DNA of 64,000 bases. Source: Candidatus Heimdallarchaeota archaeon. Lineage in GTDB: Archaea > Asgardarchaeota > Heimdallarchaeia > Hodarchaeales > Hodarchaeaceae. Below are positions 23,527-38,483 of this stretch, one piece after another. Every line of letters begins with the position of its first letter. Positions within the stretch are counted from its first letter, which is position 1. The notes under the pieces were generated by a model that was given only the letters and a program-made list of their open reading frames with translations, made no database searches and was not told the origin of the DNA. The stretch covers positions 147,210 through 211,209 of the forward strand of contig RDOB01000005.1 of the NCBI GenBank assembly GCA_011364965.1, given 5' to 3'. The translations under genes and the position numbers were made by a program.

Positions 23527-24396
23527 TTAGAAATTATCATAATCAAAAAAGAGGGGTAATATGATATGAATCCTATTGGGTAGGATCCAGGAACGGAAGT
23601 TGAAGAAAGCTGACACATATACAAGATATTCATAAATAAGCTGGTACCCGGTTCTTTGTGACAGATCTTCTGAGTCATTTAGGAAAAAAGAAACTGAGAC
23701 AGAAAAGGGATTAAACATCTCCACTTCAATTTTAATAGGCTGAGAGCACCAATATAGGAGTGTTCGAAAGAAATTTGTTAGAAAATGGGAATTTCCCCAG
23801 ATAACAGGGTCATTAAGTTGTCCATGGTTCATTTCCAATTTATTAAGAATATTAATTGTTGTATGTGAACGATCACCGATATAAAAACTCGCTTCCCGAA
23901 GAATAGAAGATAAAGAAGTAAGCTGAATCTTCTGTGTTGTTCCCAATAACTGAAGCAAATCCGAGGCAACGATTGTAGCTAACTCTTGTCGTTTTAAAGC
24001 GTTAAATATCTTATCTTCAAGAGCTGAGTTCCTAAATGGAATTCTTTTTCCTAGATTCAGAATTAGACTTGATGTGCGGAGTTCATGAATACACCTTTCC
24101 ATCCAAACAGATGTTGTAAAAGCTTTATCAGGGAAGAACTGTATTATTTTATGGGAGTTCCCCTCAATGTTCGAAGAGACAAAAAGCTCTCCACTTCTAA
24201 CATCCGGTAGAGAAAAATTCTGAGTCGATGGATGTAATTTGAATAAGTTTGCTAATGTTTGGGAAAAATATTCAATCTGGTTTTTTTCAAGAGAGATGAC
24301 CAAAAAGGCGCTAAAAGGAATTTTGAACGGGTCCTCACAGTAATTTCTTCGAGTGAGTGGATTTCTCGTTATTATTTTTTCAAAACTGGGTTCCAT
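23527..24396 (-). CDS. PAS-like plus HisKA pseudo-histidine kinase
   Basis: PFSAFLVISLEKNQIEYFSQ (PAS-like); H-box IHELRT; IWGNSHFLTNFFRTLL at the N-box position without the conserved Asn; no G boxes. Confidence 0.6.
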   Translation of the reverse strand: MEPSFEKIITRNPLTRRNYCEDPFKIPFSAFLVISLEKNQIEYFSQTLANLFKLHPSTQNFSLPDVRSGELFVSSNIEGNSHKIIQFFPDKAFTTSVWMERCIHELRTSSLILNLGKRIPFRNSALEDKIFNALKRQELATIVASDLLQLLGTTQKIQLTSLSSILREASFYIGDRSHTTINILNKLEMNHGQLNDPVIWGNSHFLTNFFRTLLYWCSQPIKIEVEMFNPFSVSVSFFLNDSEDLSQRTGYQLIYEYLVYVSAFFNFRSWILPNRIHIILPLFFDYDNF

Positions 24397-24700
24397 TTTC
24401 TACACATAGCATTTTCTTAAGATGTTCCTGCAATTTCTTAAAGATATGTGGATGACTATTACATTTTATCTCAATTAAAGGATCTATCGTCCTAGAGCTT
24501 AAAAGAAAGAATTCTGATTCGATATCTAGGTTAAGGGAATTCAAAAACCATGAAAGCAGAACCCTTCTAGAATTAGAATCATCCTCATCCCTGAGCTTTA
24601 AGACCACACGATCTTCTCCAAAATAAAAATCCTTAAACAGGTAAATTGATAGGAAAAAAAGAAGAAGGGACTCTATTCTAGTATCTTTTTCACAAGTCAA
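24380..24700 (-). CDS. Hypothetical protein, possibly an eroded HATPase-like fold
   Basis: Overlaps the next gene; RVVLKLRD and LNSLNLDIES loosely match the HATPase strand pattern. Confidence 0.5.
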   Translation of the reverse strand: MTCEKDTRIESLLLFFLSIYLFKDFYFGEDRVVLKLRDEDDSNSRRVLLSWFLNSLNLDIESEFFLLSSRTIDPLIEIKCNSHPHIFKKLQEHLKKMLCVENGTQF

Positions 24701-24723: not shown

Positions 24724-24870
24724 TTAAAATCCAGGTGGAGGAGGTGAATTTGGTGGTGCTGTACCTGTGATAACTTGGATACTAAAAAGAGTCGCCAGAA
24801 GCAACAAGGGAATTATTTTGATGATATAACTCTTACTAGGTTTTCTTAACATTCTCAAATGTCTTCTCAT
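24724..24870 (-). CDS. 48-aa putative secreted peptide precursor MRRHLRMLRKPSKSYIIKIIPLLLLATLFSIQVITGTAPPNSPPPPGF
   Basis: Manual translation from ATG 24870 to TAA 24724; basic n-region, hydrophobic h-region, Pro-rich tail; GGTG 9 nt upstream; 23 nt before the next gene. Confidence 0.7.
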   Translation of the reverse strand: MRRHLRMLRKPSKSYIIKIIPLLLLATLFSIQVITGTAPPNSPPPPGF

Positions 24871-24886
24871 GGGATTTTACACCAGC

Positions 24887-25004
24887 CCACCTAAGTATTC
24901 ATCATTCACTTTAATTCCAAGCAGGATCTTTTATCCCATTTTTTATAAAGAAATGAGCATTCTTGATAAATCTTATACGTTAAAATGTTATTTAATGTAG
25001 GTGG
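24887..25004. promoter_or_regulatory. Divergent promoter region with central palindromic TTTATAAA
   Basis: TTTATAAA at 24942-24949; CCACCTA (24887-24893) and TAGGTGG (24998-25004) share the same centre. Confidence 0.45.
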
Positions 25005-25018
25005 ATGGAAACTAGAAA

Positions 25019-26512
25019 ATGGAAGAGCTGGGGAAGCAAAAATATGTGAATGAGGAAATTTTATCTGTAAAATTTCCCTCCCAAGCAACCCCGATTGAGA
25101 AGGAATTTTTTTCCAGCTTAACAAGATATTACGAAAAAATAAAAATTAATTGTAAAGAATCAAAATCGGTACCTAAAATCTGCAACAATTTATATGAAAA
25201 GGATACTGTACCATTTCTCAATAGGTGGCACGAGCATTTTTCCTTTCTTCAACCGAGCCCAACCTATTCTGGTTGGCCTTACTATTCTTTCGAATTACAC
25301 CTACCAGATAAAGTAGTCCTAATACCCCATAGAGCGGTTGTTTATGAATTTATCAATCCTGATAATGTAATAAAAACCAAAATATCCAATCTTAGAAATA
25401 TTTCGGAATTTGTACAATTGTTCAACCGCTTTTATACAAATATAAGTGTCAATTTAAATTTAAATGATCTCAAAATTATCAAAGGGCTTACATCCAAACG
25501 TTTTTTACAAAGTAGTTCTCGATTTCCGACTAATGAGAAGATGGCGAAATTATGTGGATGTACCCGTCAAACGTTTACCAGAAGATTCGACGTTCTAACA
25601 ACTGGTCTCTCCGTCATTTATCTAAATTGTAGAATTGATGTTGGTAGACTCGGTTACGAAACATTTAACTCTATACTTCCTTTAAACCAATTTGAAAAAG
25701 TCAGGGAAGAGTGCGAAAAATATTGTCTAGCTGTAATACCAATTAATACATTTTCAAATATCTCACATACCGAATCATATTATCTTATTATAAGCCAAAT
25801 TCCAATTCATCGAAATGATTCTTATTCGATTCTCTCAAATGGGGCACATGGATCATTTCATCAGCGATTATCACAAGCTTATATTGGATGGAATCTCAAA
25901 ACGATCCATCCAGACTCTAATCTTCGGTGGAAAGTTCTTCCACCGATTCTTTCGACACAAACTTGGACAGACCATATAATATCCGAAAATAATGGGATTT
26001 TTTATGATTTAAACCCTCAAGAGTATAATCCATCTTTGACTTCAAGCGAAATTAAATTATTGAGCTATTTTGAAAAATATGGCTTCGTTCAAGATAAGAA
26101 ACTCGCCACCACGCTAGGATTATCATTAAAGACTATTCAGAATACATGGAGACGATTGAGCCAACGCAAACTGTTTCATCGATTTTCATTTATTTCTAAT
26201 ATTGGCTTAGACTTTAAACCGTGGATCACCATAATCGGAAAACAAGAATCACATTCCCCTCAACTCATTGAGAATATTGTAGAACATCTGAAATTCTTCC
26301 CATTCTGTTTTTTATTCTTTGAAACTGGAAACCGCGAGAATTCTCATCCAATAATAACAGGAGTGCTTCATATGCCTCCAGCATGGGTGGATGACTTCTT
26401 TTTTAAAATTTCACTACTTTCAGAATTGCAATTCGATGTAAACGTCAATTTTGCCCATAATCGGATAATAAAACAGAACATCAATCTCGAAGAAACTTAT
26501 AATAAAAAATAA
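25019..26512 (+). CDS. Large transcription regulator with two HTH/Lrp-AsnC-like modules
   Basis: HTH1 PTNEKMAKLCGCTRQTFTRRF plus DVGRLG linker; HTH2 QDKKLATTLGLSLKTIQNTWRRL plus NIGL. Confidence 0.7.
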   Translation: MEELGKQKYVNEEILSVKFPSQATPIEKEFFSSLTRYYEKIKINCKESKSVPKICNNLYEKDTVPFLNRWHEHFSFLQPSPTYSGWPYYSFELHLPDKVVLIPHRAVVYEFINPDNVIKTKISNLRNISEFVQLFNRFYTNISVNLNLNDLKIIKGLTSKRFLQSSSRFPTNEKMAKLCGCTRQTFTRRFDVLTTGLSVIYLNCRIDVGRLGYETFNSILPLNQFEKVREECEKYCLAVIPINTFSNISHTESYYLIISQIPIHRNDSYSILSNGAHGSFHQRLSQAYIGWNLKTIHPDSNLRWKVLPPILSTQTWTDHIISENNGIFYDLNPQEYNPSLTSSEIKLLSYFEKYGFVQDKKLATTLGLSLKTIQNTWRRLSQRKLFHRFSFISNIGLDFKPWITIIGKQESHSPQLIENIVEHLKFFPFCFLFFETGNRENSHPIITGVLHMPPAWVDDFFFKISLLSELQFDVNVNFAHNRIIKQNINLEETYNKK

Positions 26513-26524
26513 CGGAAAAAAGAA

Positions 26525-27613
26525 TCATTCAGTCTTAAAAAAGGTTGAAATCTTCGCTAATCCTTCACTAACTTGAGATAATTCTTGAGCATTCCTAGAT
26601 ATTTGTGTAATGGAAGCGGTTTGTTCTTCTGTTGATGCAACAACTTCTTCGGTAGATGCAGAGTACTCCTCAGATTGAGTAGCAAAATTTTGGAACGTTT
26701 CACTTACCATTCCTATTGTGGAACTCAAGTGCGCAAGTAAATTTGTAAATTTCATCTGTGTTTCTTGGGAGTTATGTTTTGATTCTTCAGCTAATCTCCG
26801 AACATTATCTGCCACTACAGAGAATCCTTTTCCATGCTCACCAGCTCGTGCAGCTTCAATGGAAGTATTCAATGCAAGGATATTGGTATTATGAGCAATA
26901 TCTTCAATGATTTGAAGAGAAGATTCAATCTCCTTTCTTGCCAAATTAAATACTTTGAGCAGATTCTCGATATCCTTGATCCCCGCTATGGCTGATTCTG
27001 ACTGTATATTCGCTCCTTCACTAATATTTTGTATAGTTGCTGTAACTTCTTCTGATATGGCAGTAAGTTCCTCGGAAGTTGTAGCTAGATCGTCAGCCAA
27101 CGTATTTGCTAATTGGGCTGATTTCTTAATTATTCCAATATTTGATTTCAGATTTTCGGTCATTATATGAAAAGATGAGGCCAATTCACCAAGTTCATCT
27201 TTCCGTTGCTGAAGGTCATTACTAATTTTAATTGTTAAATTTCCTTTAGCAATGGATTCTGTGGCTATAAAAGTAACAGATTTAAGGGGAATGACCAAAC
27301 TGCGGTATAAATAAGAAGCGATAGTAGCAATGATGATAAAAGTAATCAGTAAAAGTAAACACATCATCACAATATAAAGAAAAGAGGAATCCCCCCAGAT
27401 AGATTTGGCACGGACAAGAATCCCTGTAGCTAACCCCGTATAAACAACCAAGGTTGTCATAGTTATCACAAGCTGTAATACTATCGAATTTCGGGCTTTC
27501 CAAACCCCGACGCCGATAACAAGCCCTCCACTAATCAACATAATACTAACATCGAAAAACATTTCTTGAGCAATTTGTAACAGTCCATTTGAAAGCGATT
27601 GAACGTAAAACAT
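26525..27613 (-). CDS. Methyl-accepting chemotaxis protein with 3-TM membrane sensor, HAMP and short MA domain
   Basis: [35 protein letters not shown]; [14 protein letters not shown]; no extracellular domain. Confidence 0.92.
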
Positions 27614-27625
27614 CTTTGAAACACC

Positions 27626-29407
27626 TTAATTTTGTAACTTTAAATTTTCTAGCAATTCTATTCCTTTAGGTTCATGACTGAATAAAAAACAGGCCATTGA
27701 AAGATAGATGAATATCGGACCATGAGCTAAATCATTGTAACGAATAGGTCGAGGTCCAGTTCCTTCAGGAAAACTTTTCATTTGACCTTTAGTTAAGTAC
27801 TGGAGCCATAAAAGACTTTTTTCAAATAATGGATTTGAAGGATCTAATAAAGCCCAGATAATTGCTGCATAGCAAGTAGATTGTTGTTCACTTTTAGAGG
27901 AAATGTGTAATTTTGGCGAATAACCTCCATCAGTGTTAACGCTAGTCATTAAGCAATCTAATATTCTGGTTTTGAGTATAGTAGTTTGAGCTTCAAAGGA
28001 TGTTCCTTTTGTGAAAGGTGATACTTGAACAAGGTAGATTGCTATCGCAATTTGTGAGAGAGGGTAAATGTCACTAAAGGAATAAGCACAATATTTAAAG
28101 CTCCCATCCTCCTCTTGTGACTCTAGAAGATTAAGAAAAGCAGAGTTAATCATTTTAATCCTCATTTCTTCATTTATGAGAGTAGGAGGTAAAAGAGCAT
28201 ATAACATTACTAATCGGGCGGTCATCTCGGCAAGAGTTTCCGTAGAATGAAGATACATCGAAGATCCACCATCATCCCTACTGGTACGTCTAATAAATTT
28301 AAGTCCTCGATTTATCGCTTTCATTATCTCCTCTTTAGTATGATAATATGGTAGAAGCGTCAACATAACAAATATTGTAGTATCTACGTCACTTAATAGC
28401 ATCTGGGGTTGTAGTGGCCAACCTCCATCCTCATTCTGGGAAGTTAGGAGAGAGATTATTGTAGAAAAAGGAGGTTGATTTCCCTCGAAAAGCCATTTAA
28501 AAAAGAAGAAAAGGGAGGAGTTATATAATTTCATTGAATTGAGAACTGATAATCCCCCTTCTTTTCTACTAAGGTATACTTCGGATTTATGAATCCCATG
28601 CTGTATTAAATCAGGATATTTTGTAGAGAGAGCAAAATATTTTACAGTATGTAGAACCAAGAGAGTAAGAAATTGATTTTTTTGCCAAGTACCATCATTA
28701 GATTGTAATTCAAAGAGATCCCGTAAGTAATTAGACTGGATCAAAGAAGAATCATTATTTTGCTTTCCTACTATAAGCAGAAAGAGATAATAGTATACTC
28801 TCCTCCAGACATCAATTTCTTCAAGATTGACTCCAGATACGTTTAATTTTGCTGAAATAGACGTTAAAAAGGAATAAATTCTTTCTTTAACCTGATCATC
28901 TGGACTAGTATATAAAGCGAGTAAGTTGAAAGATAGAATTTTACGAAAATATCGCTTTAAATCACCCTCTTCTGCATCTGTTTTAAATAAATCCGCTAAA
29001 ATTGAATTATATTCACTAATCCAGGCATCAACTTTTCTACTTAGGGAATCGCTAGTAAAATTCTCTGAACAAATATAATAGAGATTAAATAAAGAATTTT
29101 GCAGATGTTGATCAAGGAAAGAAAGGATTGAAGGATTATTAGTTTGTCTAGCAATTTGAATTAAGGTTTCCTCGGAAATGGTTGCTTTTTCGGGAGTATA
29201 AAGAGTGAAATATGATGCTAGTAAGAGGGACTCAAGCAAACGTGCTTCATATCCAAATTCGACAAAACTACTACTTTTTTCAATATGTGAATGGATTAGC
29301 TGACTAGCGCGATCTAATATCTGTTTGAAAAGCTGTATGAATGGTTGATCAAATAACTCCTCAGGCTTCGGTCTTTTATCAGGTTGGTCTGAGATTTGGA
29401 ACTCCAA
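27626..29407 (-). CDS. Class II terpene cyclase-like (prenyltransferase/squalene-oxidase repeat) protein
   Basis: QW-type repeats LQSNDGTW, SQNEDGGW, SRDDGG, SQEEDGSF, SVNTDGGY; general-acid motif DVDTT (28390-28376); RLLESLLL and GPRPIRY segments. Confidence 0.75.
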   Translation of the reverse strand: MEFQISDQPDKRPKPEELFDQPFIQLFKQILDRASQLIHSHIEKSSSFVEFGYEARLLESLLLASYFTLYTPEKATISEETLIQIARQTNNPSILSFLDQHLQNSLFNLYYICSENFTSDSLSRKVDAWISEYNSILADLFKTDAEEGDLKRYFRKILSFNLLALYTSPDDQVKERIYSFLTSISAKLNVSGVNLEEIDVWRRVYYYLFLLIVGKQNNDSSLIQSNYLRDLFELQSNDGTWQKNQFLTLLVLHTVKYFALSTKYPDLIQHGIHKSEVYLSRKEGGLSVLNSMKLYNSSLFFFFKWLFEGNQPPFSTIISLLTSQNEDGGWPLQPQMLLSDVDTTIFVMLTLLPYYHTKEEIMKAINRGLKFIRRTSRDDGGSSMYLHSTETLAEMTARLVMLYALLPPTLINEEMRIKMINSAFLNLLESQEEDGSFKYCAYSFSDIYPLSQIAIAIYLVQVSPFTKGTSFEAQTTILKTRILDCLMTSVNTDGGYSPKLHISSKSEQQSTCYAAIIWALLDPSNPLFEKSLLWLQYLTKGQMKSFPEGTGPRPIRYNDLAHGPIFIYLSMACFLFSHEPKGIELLENLKLQN

Positions 29408-29821: not shown

Positions 29822-30334
29822 TTACCCCTTCATTAGCTTCTGTAGCTTCTGGAGACATTTCGGGCAAAATTTGCTATTTTTCTGTTTAGCTTCCCACACA
29901 CTATTAGAGAAGGTCATTACGCAGGGAAGGATGCAGTGACTCAACCCGAAGACATGGCCTAGTTCATGGATTACCTCCTTTTGGACAAAGTCAGGATTAT
30001 TTTCAAGTCTTGCAACAGAGACCACAGCACCTAGTCCATCAGAGGCGATACCAAAGACAAAATTCATATAGGGGACAAAAAGATCGTGAAAAACTAGCAA
30101 TACAATGAGATTTAAACGAGAGCGGGAAGCTGCAAATTTCAAGAGACATTGGGCATTATATTGGGAGCGAGCTTCAACCCAGCAGGAACGTGGTAGCTGT
30201 TCGGCGATTAGGTGATTAATAGTTTGAAATGAAAAGATCTCCTTTAATGAAGGTTCAAGAGGTTCAATTAAAGATGAAATGATTAGTTGATCTACTAGGA
30301 GTACCAAGGTTCTAAAATTTCGATACATTAACAT
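29822..30334 (-). CDS. amzA: Archaemetzincin (peptidase M54)
   Basis: HELGHVFGLSHC...CVMTFSNS...FCPKC; probable start ATG 30334. Confidence 0.88.
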   Translation of the reverse strand: MLMYRNFRTLVLLVDQLIISSLIEPLEPSLKEIFSFQTINHLIAEQLPRSCWVEARSQYNAQCLLKFAASRSRLNLIVLLVFHDLFVPYMNFVFGIASDGLGAVVSVARLENNPDFVQKEVIHELGHVFGLSHCILPCVMTFSNSVWEAKQKNSKFCPKCLQKLQKLMKG

Positions 30335-30537
30335 ACCACATGAAACTGAAGTTTTTAATCTTTTACTCCGATTTCTCCCAAAAAACAATGAAATAATAAA
30401 TTAAATAAATAAAATGAAGCGTTAAAAGCTTATTTTGGTTTTGAAAAGGAAAGTTCACCGTAGTTAACTTTTTGATCAAATGCATTATAATTACCTTAAT
30501 CTGTATTATTATCGCAGAAGAATGAAGATGAAGAACG

Positions 30538-32279: not shown

Positions 32280-33512
32280 TTATATTGAATTTAGGGGAAA
32301 ATGACAAGCTACATAATGATTTGGAAATAATTCTCTCAATTCTGGTTCTTCAGTTTCGCAATAAGGAAATTTAGCATAAGTACAACGTGGATGGTAACGA
32401 CAGCCAGGGGGAGGATGCACTGCATCAGGAACCTCCCCCTTAGGCAGGTTATAGGCTTTATCTCCGGGAATAGGAGTAGGTATAGCTTCGATGAGAGCTT
32501 TAGTATAGGGATGCAGGGGATTTTTGAATATAGAATCTATACTGCCCATTTCAGCGACTTTACCCACATACATTACACTAATCCTATCACCAAAATGCCT
32601 AGCTGTTGCCAGATCATGAGTAATGAAAAGGATTGAAATGTTATGAGTCTCTTGGAGAGATTTTAACGAATCAAGGATACCTGCACGCAAACTGACATCT
32701 AACATACTTGTTGGTTCATCAGCAATGAGTAATTCAGGATTCAATATTATCGCTCGCGCAATATTAGCCCGTTGTCGTTCTCCTCCACTAACTTCATGTG
32801 GATATTTAAAGTAATATTGAAGAGCAGGAGAAAGACCAACTTCTGTGAATAAATCTAGTACACGAGGGTCAGCAATTTTCTTCTTTTGGATCAAGGAGTA
32901 ATTAACATATATCCCTGATGCTAATGTAAATAAAAGTGCAGCAGTTATTGCAATGAGAAAGCCACTAGATGCATCGAGCATAAAAGATATTATAAATAAA
33001 AAGATTGAGAATAAGGCACTAATAAATAGAATAATTTCAGATTTAAATGCATTCTTTAAACGTTTGAGTGTAATTTTATCTTGTACACGATTATGAATTA
33101 TTAAGGAATGAAGAACAGAATCACCCAATCTCATTCGGGGGCTTAGGGCCGAGTAGGGATTCTGAAATACTATTTGAGATTTAATATCCTTAATTTTAGG
33201 TTTAAGGTCCTGATATGAAATCAAATTATCTTTCCATTTGAATGAACCAGCTGTTGGCTCTTCTAATCCCACGAGTATGTTCGCAGTAGTTGTTTTTCCA
33301 CATCCACTTTCCCCAACGAGACAGAAAATTTCCCCTCTATTTATTGTAAAACTAATATCATCAATTGCATGTACATAATCCTTTTGAGTTGGCAAGATGC
33401 GTTGAATAATCCCACCTTCAACTGGAAAATATTTCTTCAAATTGATGATTTCAAGTAAAGGGGTTCCTGATTGTATGTTTAATTCTGGTTCCAATTTTAT
33501 CACAGTTTTCAA
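32280..33512 (-). CDS. dppF: Oligopeptide ABC ATPase (OppF/DppF) with an inserted hydrophobic hairpin
   Basis: GESGCGKT, VSGGERQR, DEPTSMLD, HPYT, GCRYHPRC/VACH tail. Confidence 0.9.
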   Translation of the reverse strand: MKTVIKLEPELNIQSGTPLLEIINLKKYFPVEGGIIQRILPTQKDYVHAIDDISFTINRGEIFCLVGESGCGKTTTANILVGLEEPTAGSFKWKDNLISYQDLKPKIKDIKSQIVFQNPYSALSPRMRLGDSVLHSLIIHNRVQDKITLKRLKNAFKSEIILFISALFSIFLFIISFMLDASSGFLIAITAALLFTLASGIYVNYSLIQKKKIADPRVLDLFTEVGLSPALQYYFKYPHEVSGGERQRANIARAIILNPELLIADEPTSMLDVSLRAGILDSLKSLQETHNISILFITHDLATARHFGDRISVMYVGKVAEMGSIDSIFKNPLHPYTKALIEAIPTPIPGDKAYNLPKGEVPDAVHPPPGCRYHPRCTYAKFPYCETEEPELRELFPNHYVACHFPLNSI

Positions 33513-33538
33513 TTAATTTTCAAGTAATCAGCATATGA

Positions 33539-34591
33539 TCATTTTTGGTCGAATAGATGTCCATATCGATCATCGTAAATGAAACATTTGACCTTATGCT
33601 GAACTCCATTCTCAAAATTAAGGTTGATCGATTGAGGTTTTTTAGAATGACAAATATCTTGGCTATATGAACATCTATCAGCAAAACAGCAAATCAGCGG
33701 GGGATTTCTTAAGTCTGGGGGGTGTCCAGGAATAAAGCTCAATAACTTCTTTTCTTCATCTTTTACATTCGGAATTGCTTCAATTAAAGCCCGAGTGTAA
33801 GGATGAGCAGCATTTTGAAAAATTGTTTGAGTATCCCCAATCTCTAATATCTGTCCAGCATACATAATAGCCACACGGTTTGTTATTTCGGCGACAATTC
33901 CCAAATCGTGTGTTATATACAAAACAGTTAAGTCATATTCTTTAATAATTTCCTTGAGAATTTCCAATAAGCGTGCTTGTACTAATACATCTAGCGCGGT
34001 TGTTGGTTCATCTGCAATAATTAATTTTGGATTCAAAATAAGTGTTAAAGCAATAACTATACGTTGTTGCATGCCCCCTGAAAATTGAAATGGATAATCC
34101 TCTAACCGTGACTCTGGGATCTCCAAACGGTTAAGGAGCTCTAAAATTTTCTGCCAAGATTCATCATTCCACCGATAATGGGTTTTCAATGTATCTATGA
34201 AATGATTTAATACTTTCTGCAAAGGATTCAAAGCATTTTGAGAAGCCTGGAAAATCATTGACAATTCAGGCCCTCTGAGAAGTTGCATTTCTCCTTCAGG
34301 TATAGTTACTAAGTTAATATCGTTGAAAGAAATTTCTCCGCTTCGGATAACTCCTCCTTTTAGTAACTTTAAGATAGTAAATCCAAGAGAGCTTTTTCCA
34401 CATCCTGATTCCCCAACAAGACCGAGAACTTCCCCTCTATAGAGAGTAAGAGAAACATCATCAATAGCTCTTACATTCCCTTCTTTGACTGGATATTCTA
34501 CAATTAAGTTTTTAATTTCCAATAATGCCTTATTATAATAACGGTCATTACTTTGCGTTTTTCTGGCTGATGAGAGGATTGAACTTGTCAT
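33539..34591 (-). CDS. dppD: Oligopeptide ABC ATPase (OppD/DppD)
   Basis: GESGCGKS, FSGGMQQR, DEPTTALDV, HPYT. Confidence 0.93.
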   Translation of the reverse strand: MTSSILSSARKTQSNDRYYNKALLEIKNLIVEYPVKEGNVRAIDDVSLTLYRGEVLGLVGESGCGKSSLGFTILKLLKGGVIRSGEISFNDINLVTIPEGEMQLLRGPELSMIFQASQNALNPLQKVLNHFIDTLKTHYRWNDESWQKILELLNRLEIPESRLEDYPFQFSGGMQQRIVIALTLILNPKLIIADEPTTALDVLVQARLLEILKEIIKEYDLTVLYITHDLGIVAEITNRVAIMYAGQILEIGDTQTIFQNAAHPYTRALIEAIPNVKDEEKKLLSFIPGHPPDLRNPPLICCFADRCSYSQDICHSKKPQSINLNFENGVQHKVKCFIYDDRYGHLFDQK

Positions 34592-35483
34592 TTAGCGCAT
34601 CTCCTATTAATGATAATGAAAATGATAGTAAAAAGATCATAAGGCCTGGGAATAAAATCAACCAAGGATATGCACGGACTTTCACAAGAGCTCGTGAGTC
34701 ATATACATCATAACCCCAATCCGCTGTTGGAGGGGAAATACCTAATCCCAAAAATGCTAGTCCTGCATTGGTTAGAATCGCATCTGTCATATTAAACGGA
34801 ATAATTGCAATAGTGGAAGCCAAGACATTTGGTGCTATATAGCGGATCAAGATTGTGATTCTTTTAGCTCCCATTGATCTTGCTGCTTTGACGTAGCCTT
34901 CTTCTTTAATTTGCAATACTTGTGAACGTACAACCCGAAAATAAGTAGGGATGTAAACTACTGAAGTGGCAACAGCTACTGCAGATACGACTTTTAAAAC
35001 TCCAAATACTGATAGATATATAGCTAAAGTTATTGCAAGCAATAATGAAGGAAATGAATAAATTGAATCCGCAATGAGAGTAAAAAGGCGGTCAATTTTA
35101 CCACCAAAATACCCAGAAATGATTCCAAGGGGAACTCCTAGACTCAAAGACAGTATGGTCCCCGAAAAAGCAATAATTAATGCAACTTGTGATCCATAAA
35201 TCACCCGTGATAGAACATCAAATCCAAGTAAAGTTGTACCAAAGGGATGATCCTGTGATGGTGCTTCATATCGATCCCCCGAACGTTCTGCATAACCGTA
35301 TGGAGCAAGGAAATCTGCAAATAATGCCATAATTACTATTATAGAAAGAATGAACATCCCTACTGTAAAGGATTTATTCTGCCTCAAGAAAGAAAAAATG
35401 CTTAGAATGATGTTTTTTTGACCATTTGTAGTTCTAGTTTCCCGTATGCTTAAATCCATAATATTTTTCTCCTTGCTTTTCAA
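34548..35483 (-). CDS. dppC: Oligopeptide ABC permease (OppC/DppC)
   Basis: HPFGT..GFDVLSRVIYG, EAA-like YVKAARSMGA, GDALNDKFNP. Confidence 0.93.
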   Translation of the reverse strand: MKSKEKNIMDLSIRETRTTNGQKNIILSIFSFLRQNKSFTVGMFILSIIVIMALFADFLAPYGYAERSGDRYEAPSQDHPFGTTLLGFDVLSRVIYGSQVALIIAFSGTILSLSLGVPLGIISGYFGGKIDRLFTLIADSIYSFPSLLLAITLAIYLSVFGVLKVVSAVAVATSVVYIPTYFRVVRSQVLQIKEEGYVKAARSMGAKRITILIRYIAPNVLASTIAIIPFNMTDAILTNAGLAFLGLGISPPTADWGYDVYDSRALVKVRAYPWLILFPGLMIFLLSFSLSLIGDALNDKFNPLISQKNAK

Positions 35484-36541
35484 TACGTAATTCTAGGGTC
35501 AAGTAGTGCATATAAAACATCCCCAATCACGCTGACTATACTAACAATAATAACAAAGAGTACCATAACACCTTGGACAGCTGGAAAGTCTTTCTCTTGC
35601 AAGGATTGAAACAAAAACCTCCCTAATCCAGGAATATTAAATGTTGTCTCTGTTAAAATAGCTCCCGCGAGTAACAATGCAAATTGAAGACTTATTAATC
35701 CAATAGTTGGCACAACAGAATTTTTAAGGGCATATCTGTATTTTACAACATTTTCAGGAATACCTCGTGCTCGTGCGAAATGGACATACTCCTGTTCAAG
35801 ATGATAAATCATATTTGTTCTAACTTGCCGAGCTATTACCCCTGCGATCAGCATTCCAAGAGCAAGACTTGGCATCAGTAAGTGGGTTAATAAATCTAAG
35901 GTTAAATCTAACCGAAAGCTTAAAATTGTATCAATTAACCATATCTCAGTGTAATGGTTAAATTCTCCAGTATTTCCTGCATCCATTAAAGAAACAGGAG
36001 GAAATATTTCTTTTAAAATTGCATATATTGTAGGATTCCCTCTGAATATATCTGGGATGAAATAGGAGAAAAACATCTGCATAAATATGCCGACTAAAAA
36101 GATTGGAATAGAATAAATGCCAATAGTAAAAAGTCTAATGATATGATCCAAGTATCTTTCCCTGTGTGCGCCAGCTACACCCCCCATAACTATCCCGAGA
36201 GGAACTCCAATCAATACTCCAAATACTGACAACATTAATGTAGGCCCAAAAGCAAGCCCTAGTTCTGTGGCAATATCAATGTTTGTACGATAAGAAACTC
36301 CTAAATCAAATGTAATGGTTTTTATCAAAAAATCAAAATATTGTTCAATAAGTGGCCGTTCTAAACCCAAACTTTCAGAAATTAACTCAACTTGTTCATT
36401 AGTCAATTTAGGATTCATAACGAGAGCAGGATTAGCTCCTGGAAGAACCCGTAATAGAAAGAAAACGATAGTGACCAATAACCATATCATTGGAATTAAA
36501 AGAGCTATTCGTGTAATCACAAATCTAGTTAAAGACCCCAT
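35480..36541 (-). CDS. dppB: Oligopeptide ABC permease (OppB/DppB)
   Basis: EYVHFARARG, TETTFNIPGLG, DVLYALLDPRI. Confidence 0.93.
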   Translation of the reverse strand: MGSLTRFVITRIALLIPMIWLLVTIVFFLLRVLPGANPALVMNPKLTNEQVELISESLGLERPLIEQYFDFLIKTITFDLGVSYRTNIDIATELGLAFGPTLMLSVFGVLIGVPLGIVMGGVAGAHRERYLDHIIRLFTIGIYSIPIFLVGIFMQMFFSYFIPDIFRGNPTIYAILKEIFPPVSLMDAGNTGEFNHYTEIWLIDTILSFRLDLTLDLLTHLLMPSLALGMLIAGVIARQVRTNMIYHLEQEYVHFARARGIPENVVKYRYALKNSVVPTIGLISLQFALLLAGAILTETTFNIPGLGRFLFQSLQEKDFPAVQGVMVLFVIIVSIVSVIGDVLYALLDPRITY

Positions 36542-36854
36542 GGTTGTTTCCTTCTCATGAATGGAAGTTCTACATGCTTCAAGATATTACGATGAGTCTA
36601 ATATCAATAAGAATGCTTTCTTCGAAGAAAATCCATCATTAGCAGCTTCCACTACCTCGCTTATAAAAAACGCGGATCTCTAAATATACTTCACAATTTC
36701 TCAATAATGGTATTATTCCAATAGAACCTTGTATTAGAAGACCAAAAATTGACTAAAAAAGTAATAGTCATTTTAAGATTGCAACTAGGGCAACTCTGAT
36801 GTTAAAATAAGAAAAAAAGAAAAAAAAAGAAAGCTAATCACAGGGGTAACTAAC

Positions 36855-38483
36855 TTACTTTTTCCTTTTCAAGACAATTCCAATGGAGAAGATAGCTATA
36901 AAGGCTGTTAAGAATTCAAACCCAGGTATACCAGCAGCACTTACATAAATTGAATTATAATGCAGGTTTTCCGAGGGTTCCAGTACAACCCCTTTTACAC
37001 CTGGCTGCCATGCTGAGAATTGCGATAACATTGTGAACAATGGAATCAAAGGTACATCTTCAGCCATTAATTCTTGAGCACCGATCGTTGCATCTAATCG
37101 ATCATCAGCATCTGGATCAGTTAACATTGTATCTATGTATCCATCCATTTCAGTAGTGGAATAATTTGTTCCAAAACTCACTGCACCTGAACCAACGAAT
37201 GGATCCACATAATTACTTGGATCGGGGTAGTCAAACCACCAGCCTAATAGGTAGAAACCCATTGTTTGACGCTGATCGAGGTATTGAGACCATTCTGTGT
37301 TGCTCACTGTTACATCAAAGAAGCCTGTCGCTTCAAATTGAGTTTTAAGGAGTAGTGCAACATCATCTTCTGTATCTCCATAATGAGTCGGAGTATACCA
37401 TAACTCAAGATCAAATTTATTCGTATCTTTGACATAACCAGAGAGTGTCATGTTGCCTGCGACTGCATCTTGATCAGGACCTTCCATAAAAGCATCAACA
37501 TGGCTTGAAAAAATGCCTGGGATCATACTGTATAATTCTACATTATAATTGTCGAATATTGTATCCACAATTTCTGTCCTGTTTACTGCTGCGGCGAGAG
37601 CTCGGCGAACATTGATATCATCATACATATCAACGTTAATAAGAATGTATCTTATACCAGCAGAGGATTTAGTGCCGTATTCGAGATCTGGATTATCCAT
37701 AATAGAATCCATTTCATCAGGACCAAATACACGATGCGCAACATCAATATCTCCGCTTTCAAGAGCTGCAAGCATAGTAGATGCGTCTGTATAGAATTTA
37801 ACGATTAACTTGTCATTCTTTGGAGGATCACCAAAGTAGTATTCATTTGGAACGAGAATTATTTCTGTTCCTTTTGTCCACGTATCTACTTTATACGGTC
37901 CTAATCCGGCAGGAATCATATCAGGAGTACCTGATAATGCGTCCACTGGTAAGGAAATGGTACTAACTGGCCAAGCAACTGTATAAGTCAATCGTTGCAG
38001 AAAAGTAGCGTCAGGAAATTGTAAGTAAACTTTAAATGTATCAATATCAACAGCTTCAGTCCGATTAATGACATCGGTAAGAAGAAATGCGGGTTCACCA
38101 GTGGGAAGGCCGAGGACACGATCAATATTCCATTTCATAGCAGTAGCGTTAAAAGCTGTGCCATCACTGAATTTAATGTCAGTTTTTAGCTCAAAAGTAT
38201 ATTCCATAGCGTTGGGACTGACACTATACGATTCAACTATTGGGCCTTTTTCAGCGTCAGTTGAATCAATGGGCATTTGCATAAGCCCGTGCGTGAGTTG
38301 AACGAGGATATTTGAAGAAAAATAGTCGTAAGCATCGGCGGGGTCTAAATCATCGATAGAATCAGTTGTTCCAATGACAACCTGTCCCCCTGCTGCTTGA
38401 ACTGAAAGAGATTGAGAAGTAGCAAGTAATCCAACAAAGAATACTAAAAGCACGAGACTTGATAAAATTTTTCTTGACTTCAT
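36855..38483 (-). CDS. dppA: Peptide ABC substrate-binding protein (family 5) with PGF-CTERM-like anchor
   Basis: Signal peptide, LDPA, KFSDGT.FNA, GLGPYKV; C-terminal IPGF-TM-KRKK. Confidence 0.92.
   Translation of the reverse strand: MKSRKILSSLVLLVFFVGLLATSQSLSVQAAGGQVVIGTTDSIDDLDPADAYDYFSSNILVQLTHGLMQMPIDSTDAEKGPIVESYSVSPNAMEYTFELKTDIKFSDGTAFNATAMKWNIDRVLGLPTGEPAFLLTDVINRTEAVDIDTFKVYLQFPDATFLQRLTYTVAWPVSTISLPVDALSGTPDMIPAGLGPYKVDTWTKGTEIILVPNEYYFGDPPKNDKLIVKFYTDASTMLAALESGDIDVAHRVFGPDEMDSIMDNPDLEYGTKSSAGIRYILINVDMYDDINVRRALAAAVNRTEIVDTIFDNYNVELYSMIPGIFSSHVDAFMEGPDQDAVAGNMTLSGYVKDTNKFDLELWYTPTHYGDTEDDVALLLKTQFEATGFFDVTVSNTEWSQYLDQRQTMGFYLLGWWFDYPDPSNYVDPFVGSGAVSFGTNYSTTEMDGYIDTMLTDPDADDRLDATIGAQELMAEDVPLIPLFTMLSQFSAWQPGVKGVVLEPSENLHYNSIYVSAAGIPGFEFLTAFIAIFSIGIVLKRKK

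Follow-up and report, generated by a model that had tools for sequence, protein, structure and literature searches.

A conserved, multiplied microprotein–regulator pair in Hodarchaeales, examined as a candidate propeptide/receptor system

Does a 48-codon open reading frame (ORF), divergent from a putative regulator gene on a Heimdallarchaeota contig, encode a real peptide, and if so, what might that peptide do? The window analysed here, meaning the whole stretch of 64,000 nucleotides, comes from an assembly of 2.97 Mb that is 87% complete. An initial annotation of its letters had proposed a micropeptide (MP). The ORF (24724..24870, minus strand), assessed by its translation, family alignments and omega values, is present, with an ATG start, a TAA stop, 48 codons and exactly the translation given there. 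The first 15 residues of MP are basic, a hydrophobic stretch covers residues 16-36 (mean Kyte-Doolittle value of 2.3 for a 19-mer) and an uncharged proline-rich tail occupies residues 37-48; the N-terminal flank has a net charge of +6 and the C-terminal flank a net charge of 0. The leader (codons 1-36; 24763..24870, minus strand), as defined by charge, hydropathy and the -3/-1 rule, comprises a basic n-region, a hydrophobic segment of about 20 residues and Gly36. The tail (codons 37-48, TAPPNSPPPPGF; 24727..24762, minus strand) is the candidate mature peptide or ligand on the basis of selection and a co-folded interface. A Shine-Dalgarno sequence, GGTG (24880..24883, minus strand), is located 9 nt ahead of the ATG, and the intergenic regions of four orthologues all retain it without change.

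Family members share a recognizable pattern: a basic N-terminus, Lys-Pro-x-Lys, and Lys-x-x-Pro-Leu at the start of a helix of about 20 residues, followed by a small residue plus x-Ala-Asp/Pro-Pro and then a short proline-rich end. A GGAGG or GGTG Shine-Dalgarno sequence is present 6-10 nt upstream of the start in 15 of 20 members. Searches of Pfam and NCBIfam with MP returned no match. The peptide had been described as unannotated, which holds for the ORF track available to the initial annotation, but NCBI does contain orthologues as the 'hypothetical protein' of Hodarchaeales MAGs; 15 family members are present in public databases under that name, four of them close orthologues (52-75% identical). 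Contigs from four public studies carry the stretch almost unchanged, with an identical MP in all four, and are uninformative on selection because no variant falls within MP. In the intergenic region upstream of MP they differ at a single position, 24893, where one run has G in place of A. The samples that contain the organism are from mangrove, estuary or marine sediment, and none of the runs listed for the locus is an RNA run. The possibility that MP is a chance ORF and not a gene draws on small size only, given that short ORFs are common in DNA of 34% G+C. Against this, frame, length, Shine-Dalgarno sequence and position are kept in more than 30 loci, and omega is far under 1 with saturated synonymous sites; these conservation data already refute a chance ORF, and its probability is practically negligible. 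MP is a real, conserved gene.

A search with the single MP sequence detected relatives in most genomes of the genus, as well as two paralogues in its own genome. A profile constructed from 14 sequences matched 19 of the 20 genomes of its Hodarchaeales genus, each with one to six matches. Applied to 280 Asgard genomes outside the genus, the same profile gave noise-level matches alone, many with internal stops, and no convincing homologue. MP opens a minus-strand run in which a 106-residue ORF follows after 23 nt and a 289-residue ORF overlaps the latter by 17 nt, and it is divergent, across a spacing of 148 nt, from a 497-residue ORF (c0; 25019-26512, plus strand); the gene map therefore agrees with the initial description of MP as the first gene of that run, divergent from a regulator. 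In each of the 17 loci that searches with the peptide uncovered, the gene directly upstream of MP is that for c0 (divergent in 16, co-directional in one), and it also adjoins MP in three further orthologous loci. In the other direction, an MP-like ORF lies beside 12 of 16 further c0-like genes in loci found through c0. Small ORFs beside homologues of the regulator, with a conserved layout and a variable tail, had been anticipated, and both parts of that expectation were borne out: the leader is kept and the tails differ among paralogues.

Four such cassettes are present in the window's own genome and the maximum is six; within a genome they are mutually diverged. The fourth cassette of the own genome has c0 and MP alone, and these two genes are therefore considered the cassette core. 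A protein of about 100 residues is encoded downstream of MP in cassettes, and a 145-residue longin-like protein and/or an H-box protein occur as optional extras. The MP-c0 locus is thus a conserved, multiplied microprotein-regulator pair that standard annotation presents as two hypothetical proteins, and it is proposed that the peptide gene and the receptor gene have been inherited, duplicated and diversified together as one cassette. In one locus (L042, G020 contig 126, 1-8500), three c0-like genes and two MP-like ORFs occur in 8.5 kb as a local cassette cluster. In another Hodarchaeales MAG, an IS605 OrfB/TnpB-type gene (L032:9813-11024) is found about 3.7 kb downstream of the orthologous cassette.

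The partner protein c0 (25019..26512, plus strand), a tandem Lrp/AsnC-like candidate receptor or regulator, was characterized by AF2 modelling, Foldseek and a profile search of the PDB. The AF2 model, from a 20-row alignment, has a pLDDT of 86.9 and a pTM of 0.85 and contains an N-terminal domain of about 140 residues, followed by two modules (about 148-291 and 342-477) that each combine a winged helix-turn-helix (wHTH) with a RAM domain (beta-alpha-beta-beta-alpha-beta). The best Foldseek match is the fused siroheme decarboxylase NirDL (4czc, E 9.5e-7, 355 columns), and many Lrp/AsnC 'feast/famine' (FFRP) chains match at probabilities of 0.93-0.99. In the profile search against the PDB, the archaeal Lrp proteins PH0140 (the best, E 3e-5), LrpA and PH1519 were detected, and the matches are Lrp/MarR HTH proteins. 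Comparison with Pfam and NCBIfam gave sub-threshold HTH matches only, with no curated family threshold reached, and no TPR domain appeared in the Pfam search or among the fold matches. On the strength of the fold and profile matches, c0 is a pseudo-dimeric, distant Lrp/AsnC derivative, and it is plausible that it is a ligand-responsive DNA-binding protein. Like NirDL, it has two wHTH and RAM modules in one chain; it differs from Lrp/AsnC regulators and NirDL/AhbAB in its added N-terminal domain of about 140 residues and in its confinement to a single genus at the HMMER level. The known effectors of those proteins are amino acids or tetrapyrroles, not peptides, and we know of no Lrp-family protein that binds a peptide. 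No c0 was found beyond its genus at the phmmer/HMMER level, and a c0 profile searched against 1.84 billion representative proteins detected no more than 36 of them at E <=1e-30, a number that rises to 68 at E <=1e-10. Beyond the end of c0, a membrane chemoreceptor (HAMP and MCPsignal) and a prenyltransferase/terpene-cyclase-like protein (26525-29407, minus strand) converge on it, with 12 nt between the stops.

The 106-residue protein (24380..24700, minus strand) follows MP in most cassettes, with a gap of 6-52 nt across the family, and its identity tracks that of c0 (r = 0.95). As judged from its alignment and AF2 model (pLDDT 84.9), it is a cytosolic alpha/beta protein with a sandwich of the order a-b-b-a-b-b-a; comparison of that fold by Foldseek with the PDB and VIA-wide gave no clear relative (best E 0.03, Z 5.4), and an Atlas look-up gave unnamed clusters only. 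Neither this protein nor the H-box protein matches Pfam or NCBIfam. The 289-residue H-box protein (23527..24396, minus strand) is an accessory in some cassettes (11 of 17) and, on alignment, has an invariant, DHp-like His-Glu-Leu-Arg-Thr (HELRT) together with several other invariant motifs. There is a weak match to the DHp region of CpxA (E 0.024) and no recognizable ATPase or ATP-binding domain, and the protein may be a phosphotransfer or phosphatase-type pseudo-kinase. Many paralogous cassettes have a longin-like insert of about 145 residues between the 106-residue and H-box genes (L019:7290-7724, L021:8483-8923 and relatives), with sub-threshold matches to Fuz_longin_1 (E 2e-4) and Sybindin (E 0.014). 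The idea that the 106-residue protein is a relative of this longin-like accessory protein was rejected, the profile comparison giving a probability of 2%.

A short peptide gene followed by a gene of about 100 codons, under a neighbouring regulator, is a layout resembling that of bacteriocin-immunity pairs. The arrangement of MP and the 106-residue gene is similar, and MP might accordingly be read as a small secreted or membrane toxin, archaeocin-like, with the 106-residue protein as its immunity factor. Such a role is highly improbable: an uncharged, proline-rich product of 12 residues is unlike known archaeocins or the arginine-rich, proline-rich antimicrobial peptides, the 106-residue gene is absent from some cassettes, export and modification genes are absent, and no match was found in defence or family libraries.

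The region between the divergent genes contains an imperfect palindrome around a TATA-like box (24935..24957, not assigned to a strand), about 75 nt upstream of the MP start, which is conserved in orthologues, takes the form of a perfect 7+7 palindrome in L032 and is a candidate promoter/operator of the divergent pair. It could serve as the binding site of c0. In another orthologous group (L019-L023, L025, L030), the intergenic region between c0 and MP contains a conserved AT-rich motif of about 22 nt, with the core TTCATTAA, a few bases and TCTA, located about 50-70 nt upstream of the peptide start and unlike the palindrome of the window's group.

Selection on MP was analysed by comparing the DNA of the window with three orthologues, L032, L033 and L036. 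Over the whole gene, omega is 0.11-0.38 and synonymous sites are saturated (pS 0.56-0.71). The N-terminus has omega values from about 0.1 to above 1, and the leader is 33-56% identical among the window, L032 and L036, a comparison in which c0 is 51-53% identical. In the tail (about codons 36-48), the same three sequences have 6-9 synonymous and 0 non-synonymous differences, which indicates that the constraint in the window's group is on the amino acids of the tail and not on the DNA; comparison with L033 gives three non-synonymous differences. In these orthologue comparisons, c0 is 51-59% identical and the 106-residue protein 39-43%. Purifying selection, on which the initial annotation had made its proposal depend, is thus strong across MP and strongest on its tail; selection does act on the tail. 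In the L019 group (c0 51-69% identical), the leader and helix of MP are conserved and the tail retains just its Ala-Asp-Pro and Pro-Pro elements, and in more diverged cassettes the tails are rich in Gly, Ala and Pro without a proline run.

The composition of the tail bears on whether MP might act during its own translation. PPP and PPG are established EF-P/eIF5A-dependent stall motifs, and MP could be a regulatory leader ORF in which poly-proline stalling, relieved in an aIF5A-dependent manner, tunes the next gene 23 nt on. The proline run does end two codons ahead of the stop, and the short distance to the 106-residue gene is kept across the family. This is nonetheless very unlikely, given that the Gly/Ala-rich tails of diverged members have no proline run, the non-proline residues of the tail are equally invariant, one cassette lacks a downstream partner gene, and the conserved leader helix is left unexplained. 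Arrest of the SecM/MifM type needs an export or insertion signal at least 30 residues upstream. The proline run of MP occupies residues 43-46 and its helix extends to residue 36; with the helix about 10 residues ahead of the run, and so inside the ribosome tunnel, there would be no pulling force of that type.

The hydrophobic part of MP is more difficult to interpret. Across 32 family members, the N-terminal flank has a charge of +2 to +10, the positive-inside bias is strong in all, and the uncharged hydrophobic stretch covers 18-21 residues with Kyte-Doolittle values of 1.8-3.0, which is similar to a transmembrane segment. From this charge bias, an N-in/C-out orientation is predicted, with the tail outside and c0 inside the cell. 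As a cleavable Sec signal, MP has the basic n-region but not the short core (about 7-15 residues). The initial description of MP as nearly all signal peptide therefore stands for the basic leader and the 12-residue tail, but the hydrophobic stretch of about 20 residues exceeds a classical core. The -3/-1 rule, a rule of thumb (small residues, no Pro at +1), agrees with cleavage at the conserved glycine in 24 of the 26 members with a placeable motif; in the window the site is Ile-Thr-Gly followed by Thr, and a cut after Gly36 would free exactly residues 37-48.

Other types of signal were considered and rejected, and other partners of the tail were looked for. A twin Arg, as in Tat signals, occurs only in the window copy of MP; a class III (pilin) signal would have Lys/Arg-Gly ahead of the helix, which MP does not; and with no Cys in MP there is no lipobox. 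As for a PGF-CTERM/archaeosortase signal, PGF is located at the very end of MP, with the only helix ahead of it, and paralogues end otherwise. A RiPP precursor is disfavoured by the absence of a modifying enzyme and by contacts (vide infra) that involve the tail and not the leader. PPPGF had also been pointed out as a ligand motif for GYF domains. That suggestion found no support: a search for the GYF domain (PF02213) gave no match in the 87%-complete genome, control genomes being equally silent, and the tail is predicted to be outside. Profilin as a tail partner yielded one sub-threshold profilin-like match, which is irrelevant to an external tail.

Since the segment is transmembrane-like and about 20 residues long, MP may stay in the membrane, which counts against a propeptide. 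In the main rival explanation, MP is a stable single-pass membrane microprotein, an uncleaved signal anchor with an N-in/C-out orientation whose role in the membrane, like that of MgrB-type peptides, would be to modulate or anchor another component or to act as a small subunit; c0 would just regulate the operon, and any contact between tail and c0 would be an artefact. In addition to the length, hydropathy and charge bias of the segment, this explanation could account for the conservation of Lys-x-x-Pro at the helix start and of a mid-helix Thr, and for the L019 group, in which the tail is less conserved than the leader and helix. MgrB of enterobacteria (47 residues) is similar in size, in its single helix and in its N-in/C-out orientation by charge bias. 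However, MgrB-type peptides act on a membrane sensor kinase, whereas the MP cassette contains no membrane protein, and the most constrained part of MP in the window's own group is the short, predicted external tail. The results of co-folding and co-variation described below also speak against a membrane microprotein, and overall it is considered unlikely.

Co-folding with the regulator had been suggested as a check on MP. Three chains (c0, the 106-residue protein and MP) were co-folded from row-matched alignments, with MP as the scored partner. The ipSAE is 0.84 (0.81-0.85 in three runs), compared to 0.02 for the best of 3 controls; in calibration, 58 of 80 solved complexes scored this high, as did 2 of 110 mismatched pairs, counts that apply only approximately here, where own alignments and three chains were used. 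At least 76% of contacts are common to the runs, and the pLDDT of the partner does not fall below 57. Only residues 37-48 of MP belong to the confident interface, all of their contacts are with c0, and when c0 is replaced, the score falls to 0.00. On the c0 side it includes residues 82-105, 139, 168-172, 190-203, 353-361, 391-400, 431, 449 and 484-486, which line a cleft flanked by the N-domain and by modules 1 and 2. The 106-residue protein has no confident contact with MP in the three-chain model, which is not evidence against binding. With the controls passed and the tail alone in contact, the model lends in silico support to binding of the MP tail to c0.

Co-variation across 32 cassettes was also assessed. 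Similarity of the last 12 residues of MP correlates with similarity of the interface (r = 0.60) and with that of the rest of c0 (r = 0.51). Controlling for the rest of c0 leaves a partial r of 0.375 (partial Mantel p about 0.0005, for pairs that are not phylogenetically independent), and the converse value is -0.08. Entropy-matched random sets of 40 columns match the partial r of 0.375 in 0.8% of draws, a result that depends in part on the fold, since 20 of the 32 rows had entered its alignment; for the 12 cassettes outside that alignment the value of 6.8% is no more than suggestive. Group-specific positions are not significantly enriched in the 40-residue interface (20% versus 13%, p = 0.16). 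The co-fold, in which every control is passed and no part of MP but the tail is in the interface, the co-varying tail and interface, and the diversification of cassettes in the manner of ligand-receptor pairs all argue against MP as a stable membrane microprotein.

The preferred explanation is that MP and c0 are a propeptide and its receptor, analogous in operation to Rgg-SHP or Rap-Phr but homologous to neither, and it stands at about an even chance of being correct. It is drawn from the strict pairing of the genes, the up to six diverged cassettes per genome, the combination of a conserved leader with paralogue-specific tails, the constraint on the tail and the controlled co-fold. In this proposed system, the C-terminal 12 residues of MP would be the specific ligand of the divergently encoded c0. 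The basic N-terminus and hydrophobic helix would carry MP into or through the membrane, N-in and C-out, and cleavage by the conserved Gly36 would release the protease-resistant, proline-rich 12-mer outside the cell. Once concentrated enough, the 12-mer might be taken up, for example by an importer of the Opp/Dpp type, and could lodge in the cleft between the N-domain of c0 and its two Lrp modules. The action of c0 on the shared promoter region would then be altered, and with it the peptide operon (the 106-residue protein and the H-box protein). With the tail predicted to be outside and c0 inside, export, trimming and re-import as in RRNPP systems is the simplest known connection between them, and the need for such a loop counts against this explanation; export, cleavage after Gly36, re-import and a regulatory outcome are accordingly putative steps.

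A complete oligopeptide ABC importer of the Opp/Dpp type is encoded in the window (32280-38483, minus strand), with SBP_bac_5, two permeases and two ATPases with oligo_HPY tails. This operon is 7 kb from MP and is not syntenic with the cassettes, and peptides might enter the cell through its importer. An archaemetzincin-type metalloprotease (29822-30388, minus strand; Peptidase_M54, E 2.7e-20) is encoded between this operon and the gene for the cyclase-like protein.

The initial annotation had likened MP to the Phr, PapR and SHP pheromones. The likeness is one of layout and logic but not of family membership, the receptor being a tandem Lrp/AsnC protein and not a TPR protein. With respect to RRNPP membership, the propeptide gene does adjoin the receptor gene, but the receptor is not of the TPR type (c0 consists of an N-domain and 2 x (wHTH + RAM)). 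With the Rgg/SHP systems of streptococci, MP shares a very short ORF, a basic N-terminus, a hydrophobic body and, by prediction, an active C-terminal part; also alike are the divergence from a cytoplasmic receptor-regulator, the position as first gene of the regulated operon and receptor binding, predicted in the case of MP. The Rgg receptor differs in combining HTH-XRE with TPR, where c0 combines tandem Lrp/AsnC modules with an extra N-domain, and the peptide is hydrophobic there and proline-rich in the tail of MP, which belongs to an Asgard archaeon. For MP, whose export and import are putative, no genes of the PptAB/Eep type for export or processing were identified. Rap-Phr, PlcR-PapR, NprR-NprX and the phage pair AimR-AimP use propeptides of about 40-60 residues that begin with a secretion signal and have the mature peptide at the C-terminus, an organization that is also predicted for MP, and are alike in receptor adjacency, in many diverged pairs per genome and in the availability of an Opp-type importer. 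Neither partner in those systems is homologous to MP or c0 in sequence or fold. Their mature peptides have 5-10 residues, compared to a candidate 12 in MP, and the hydrophobic core of MP is longer than those of Sec signal peptides. Peptide-receptor pairs are multiplied in Bacillota, according to a published account (PMC7425212), and the MP cassettes match that pattern.

The same co-fold evidence is compatible with a second arrangement, in which the tail binds c0 within the producing cell and is never exported. In that case, c0 would respond to MP that is newly made or has not been inserted, whether in an autoregulatory loop or to monitor the capacity for membrane insertion, and no export-import loop would be needed. 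With the helix only about 10 residues from the C-terminus, insertion would have to be post-translational, which implies an at least brief cytosolic pool of MP. However, one monitor cassette would suffice, and genomes have as many as six, whose tails differ and whose pockets co-vary with them. The conserved -3/-1 site also points to export, as do the secretion-type leaders in distant relatives: near distant c0-like genes (E 1e-7 to 1e-16), small ORFs with a secretion-type leader and a proline-containing tail were detected. A purely intracellular ligand is therefore regarded as decidedly improbable.

Returning to a propeptide/receptor pair, the conservation of the tail, its constant position beside c0 and its predicted fit into that protein make MP the best current candidate for archaeal peptide signalling. 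In the paper library that was searched, no report was found of archaea, or of anything other than Bacillota and their phages, in which cells signal to each other by a peptide that acts on a cytoplasmic receptor, and no prior published description of the MP-c0 cassette was found. A broader and more tentative suggestion, possible but held with some doubt, is that these cassettes represent the first peptide-pheromone system of Archaea, for quorum sensing or kin recognition, with several orthogonal channels per cell, each pairing a secreted proline-rich peptide with its cognate receptor in the cytoplasm, where a tandem Lrp carrying an N-terminal lid would be a new receptor class, and that the system arose and diversified within Hodarchaeales. 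If the tail is the ligand of c0, Archaea would have built the same circuit independently from different parts, and the Lrp/AsnC fold would gain a peptide effector. For the barely cultivable Hodarchaeales, of all known lineages the one most closely related to eukaryotes, there would likewise be a directly testable social or regulatory signal. The four cassettes in one genome constitute a built-in specificity matrix.

A few observations concern the most remote c0-like genes. Two very distant ones (L054:1477-2330 and L055:390-1206) are divergent from a stand-alone response-regulator gene, which is followed by ORFs of 75-81 residues with a classical secretion signal. In a third locus (L052), genes for Arf/Rag-like small GTPases are found beside a very distant c0-like gene.
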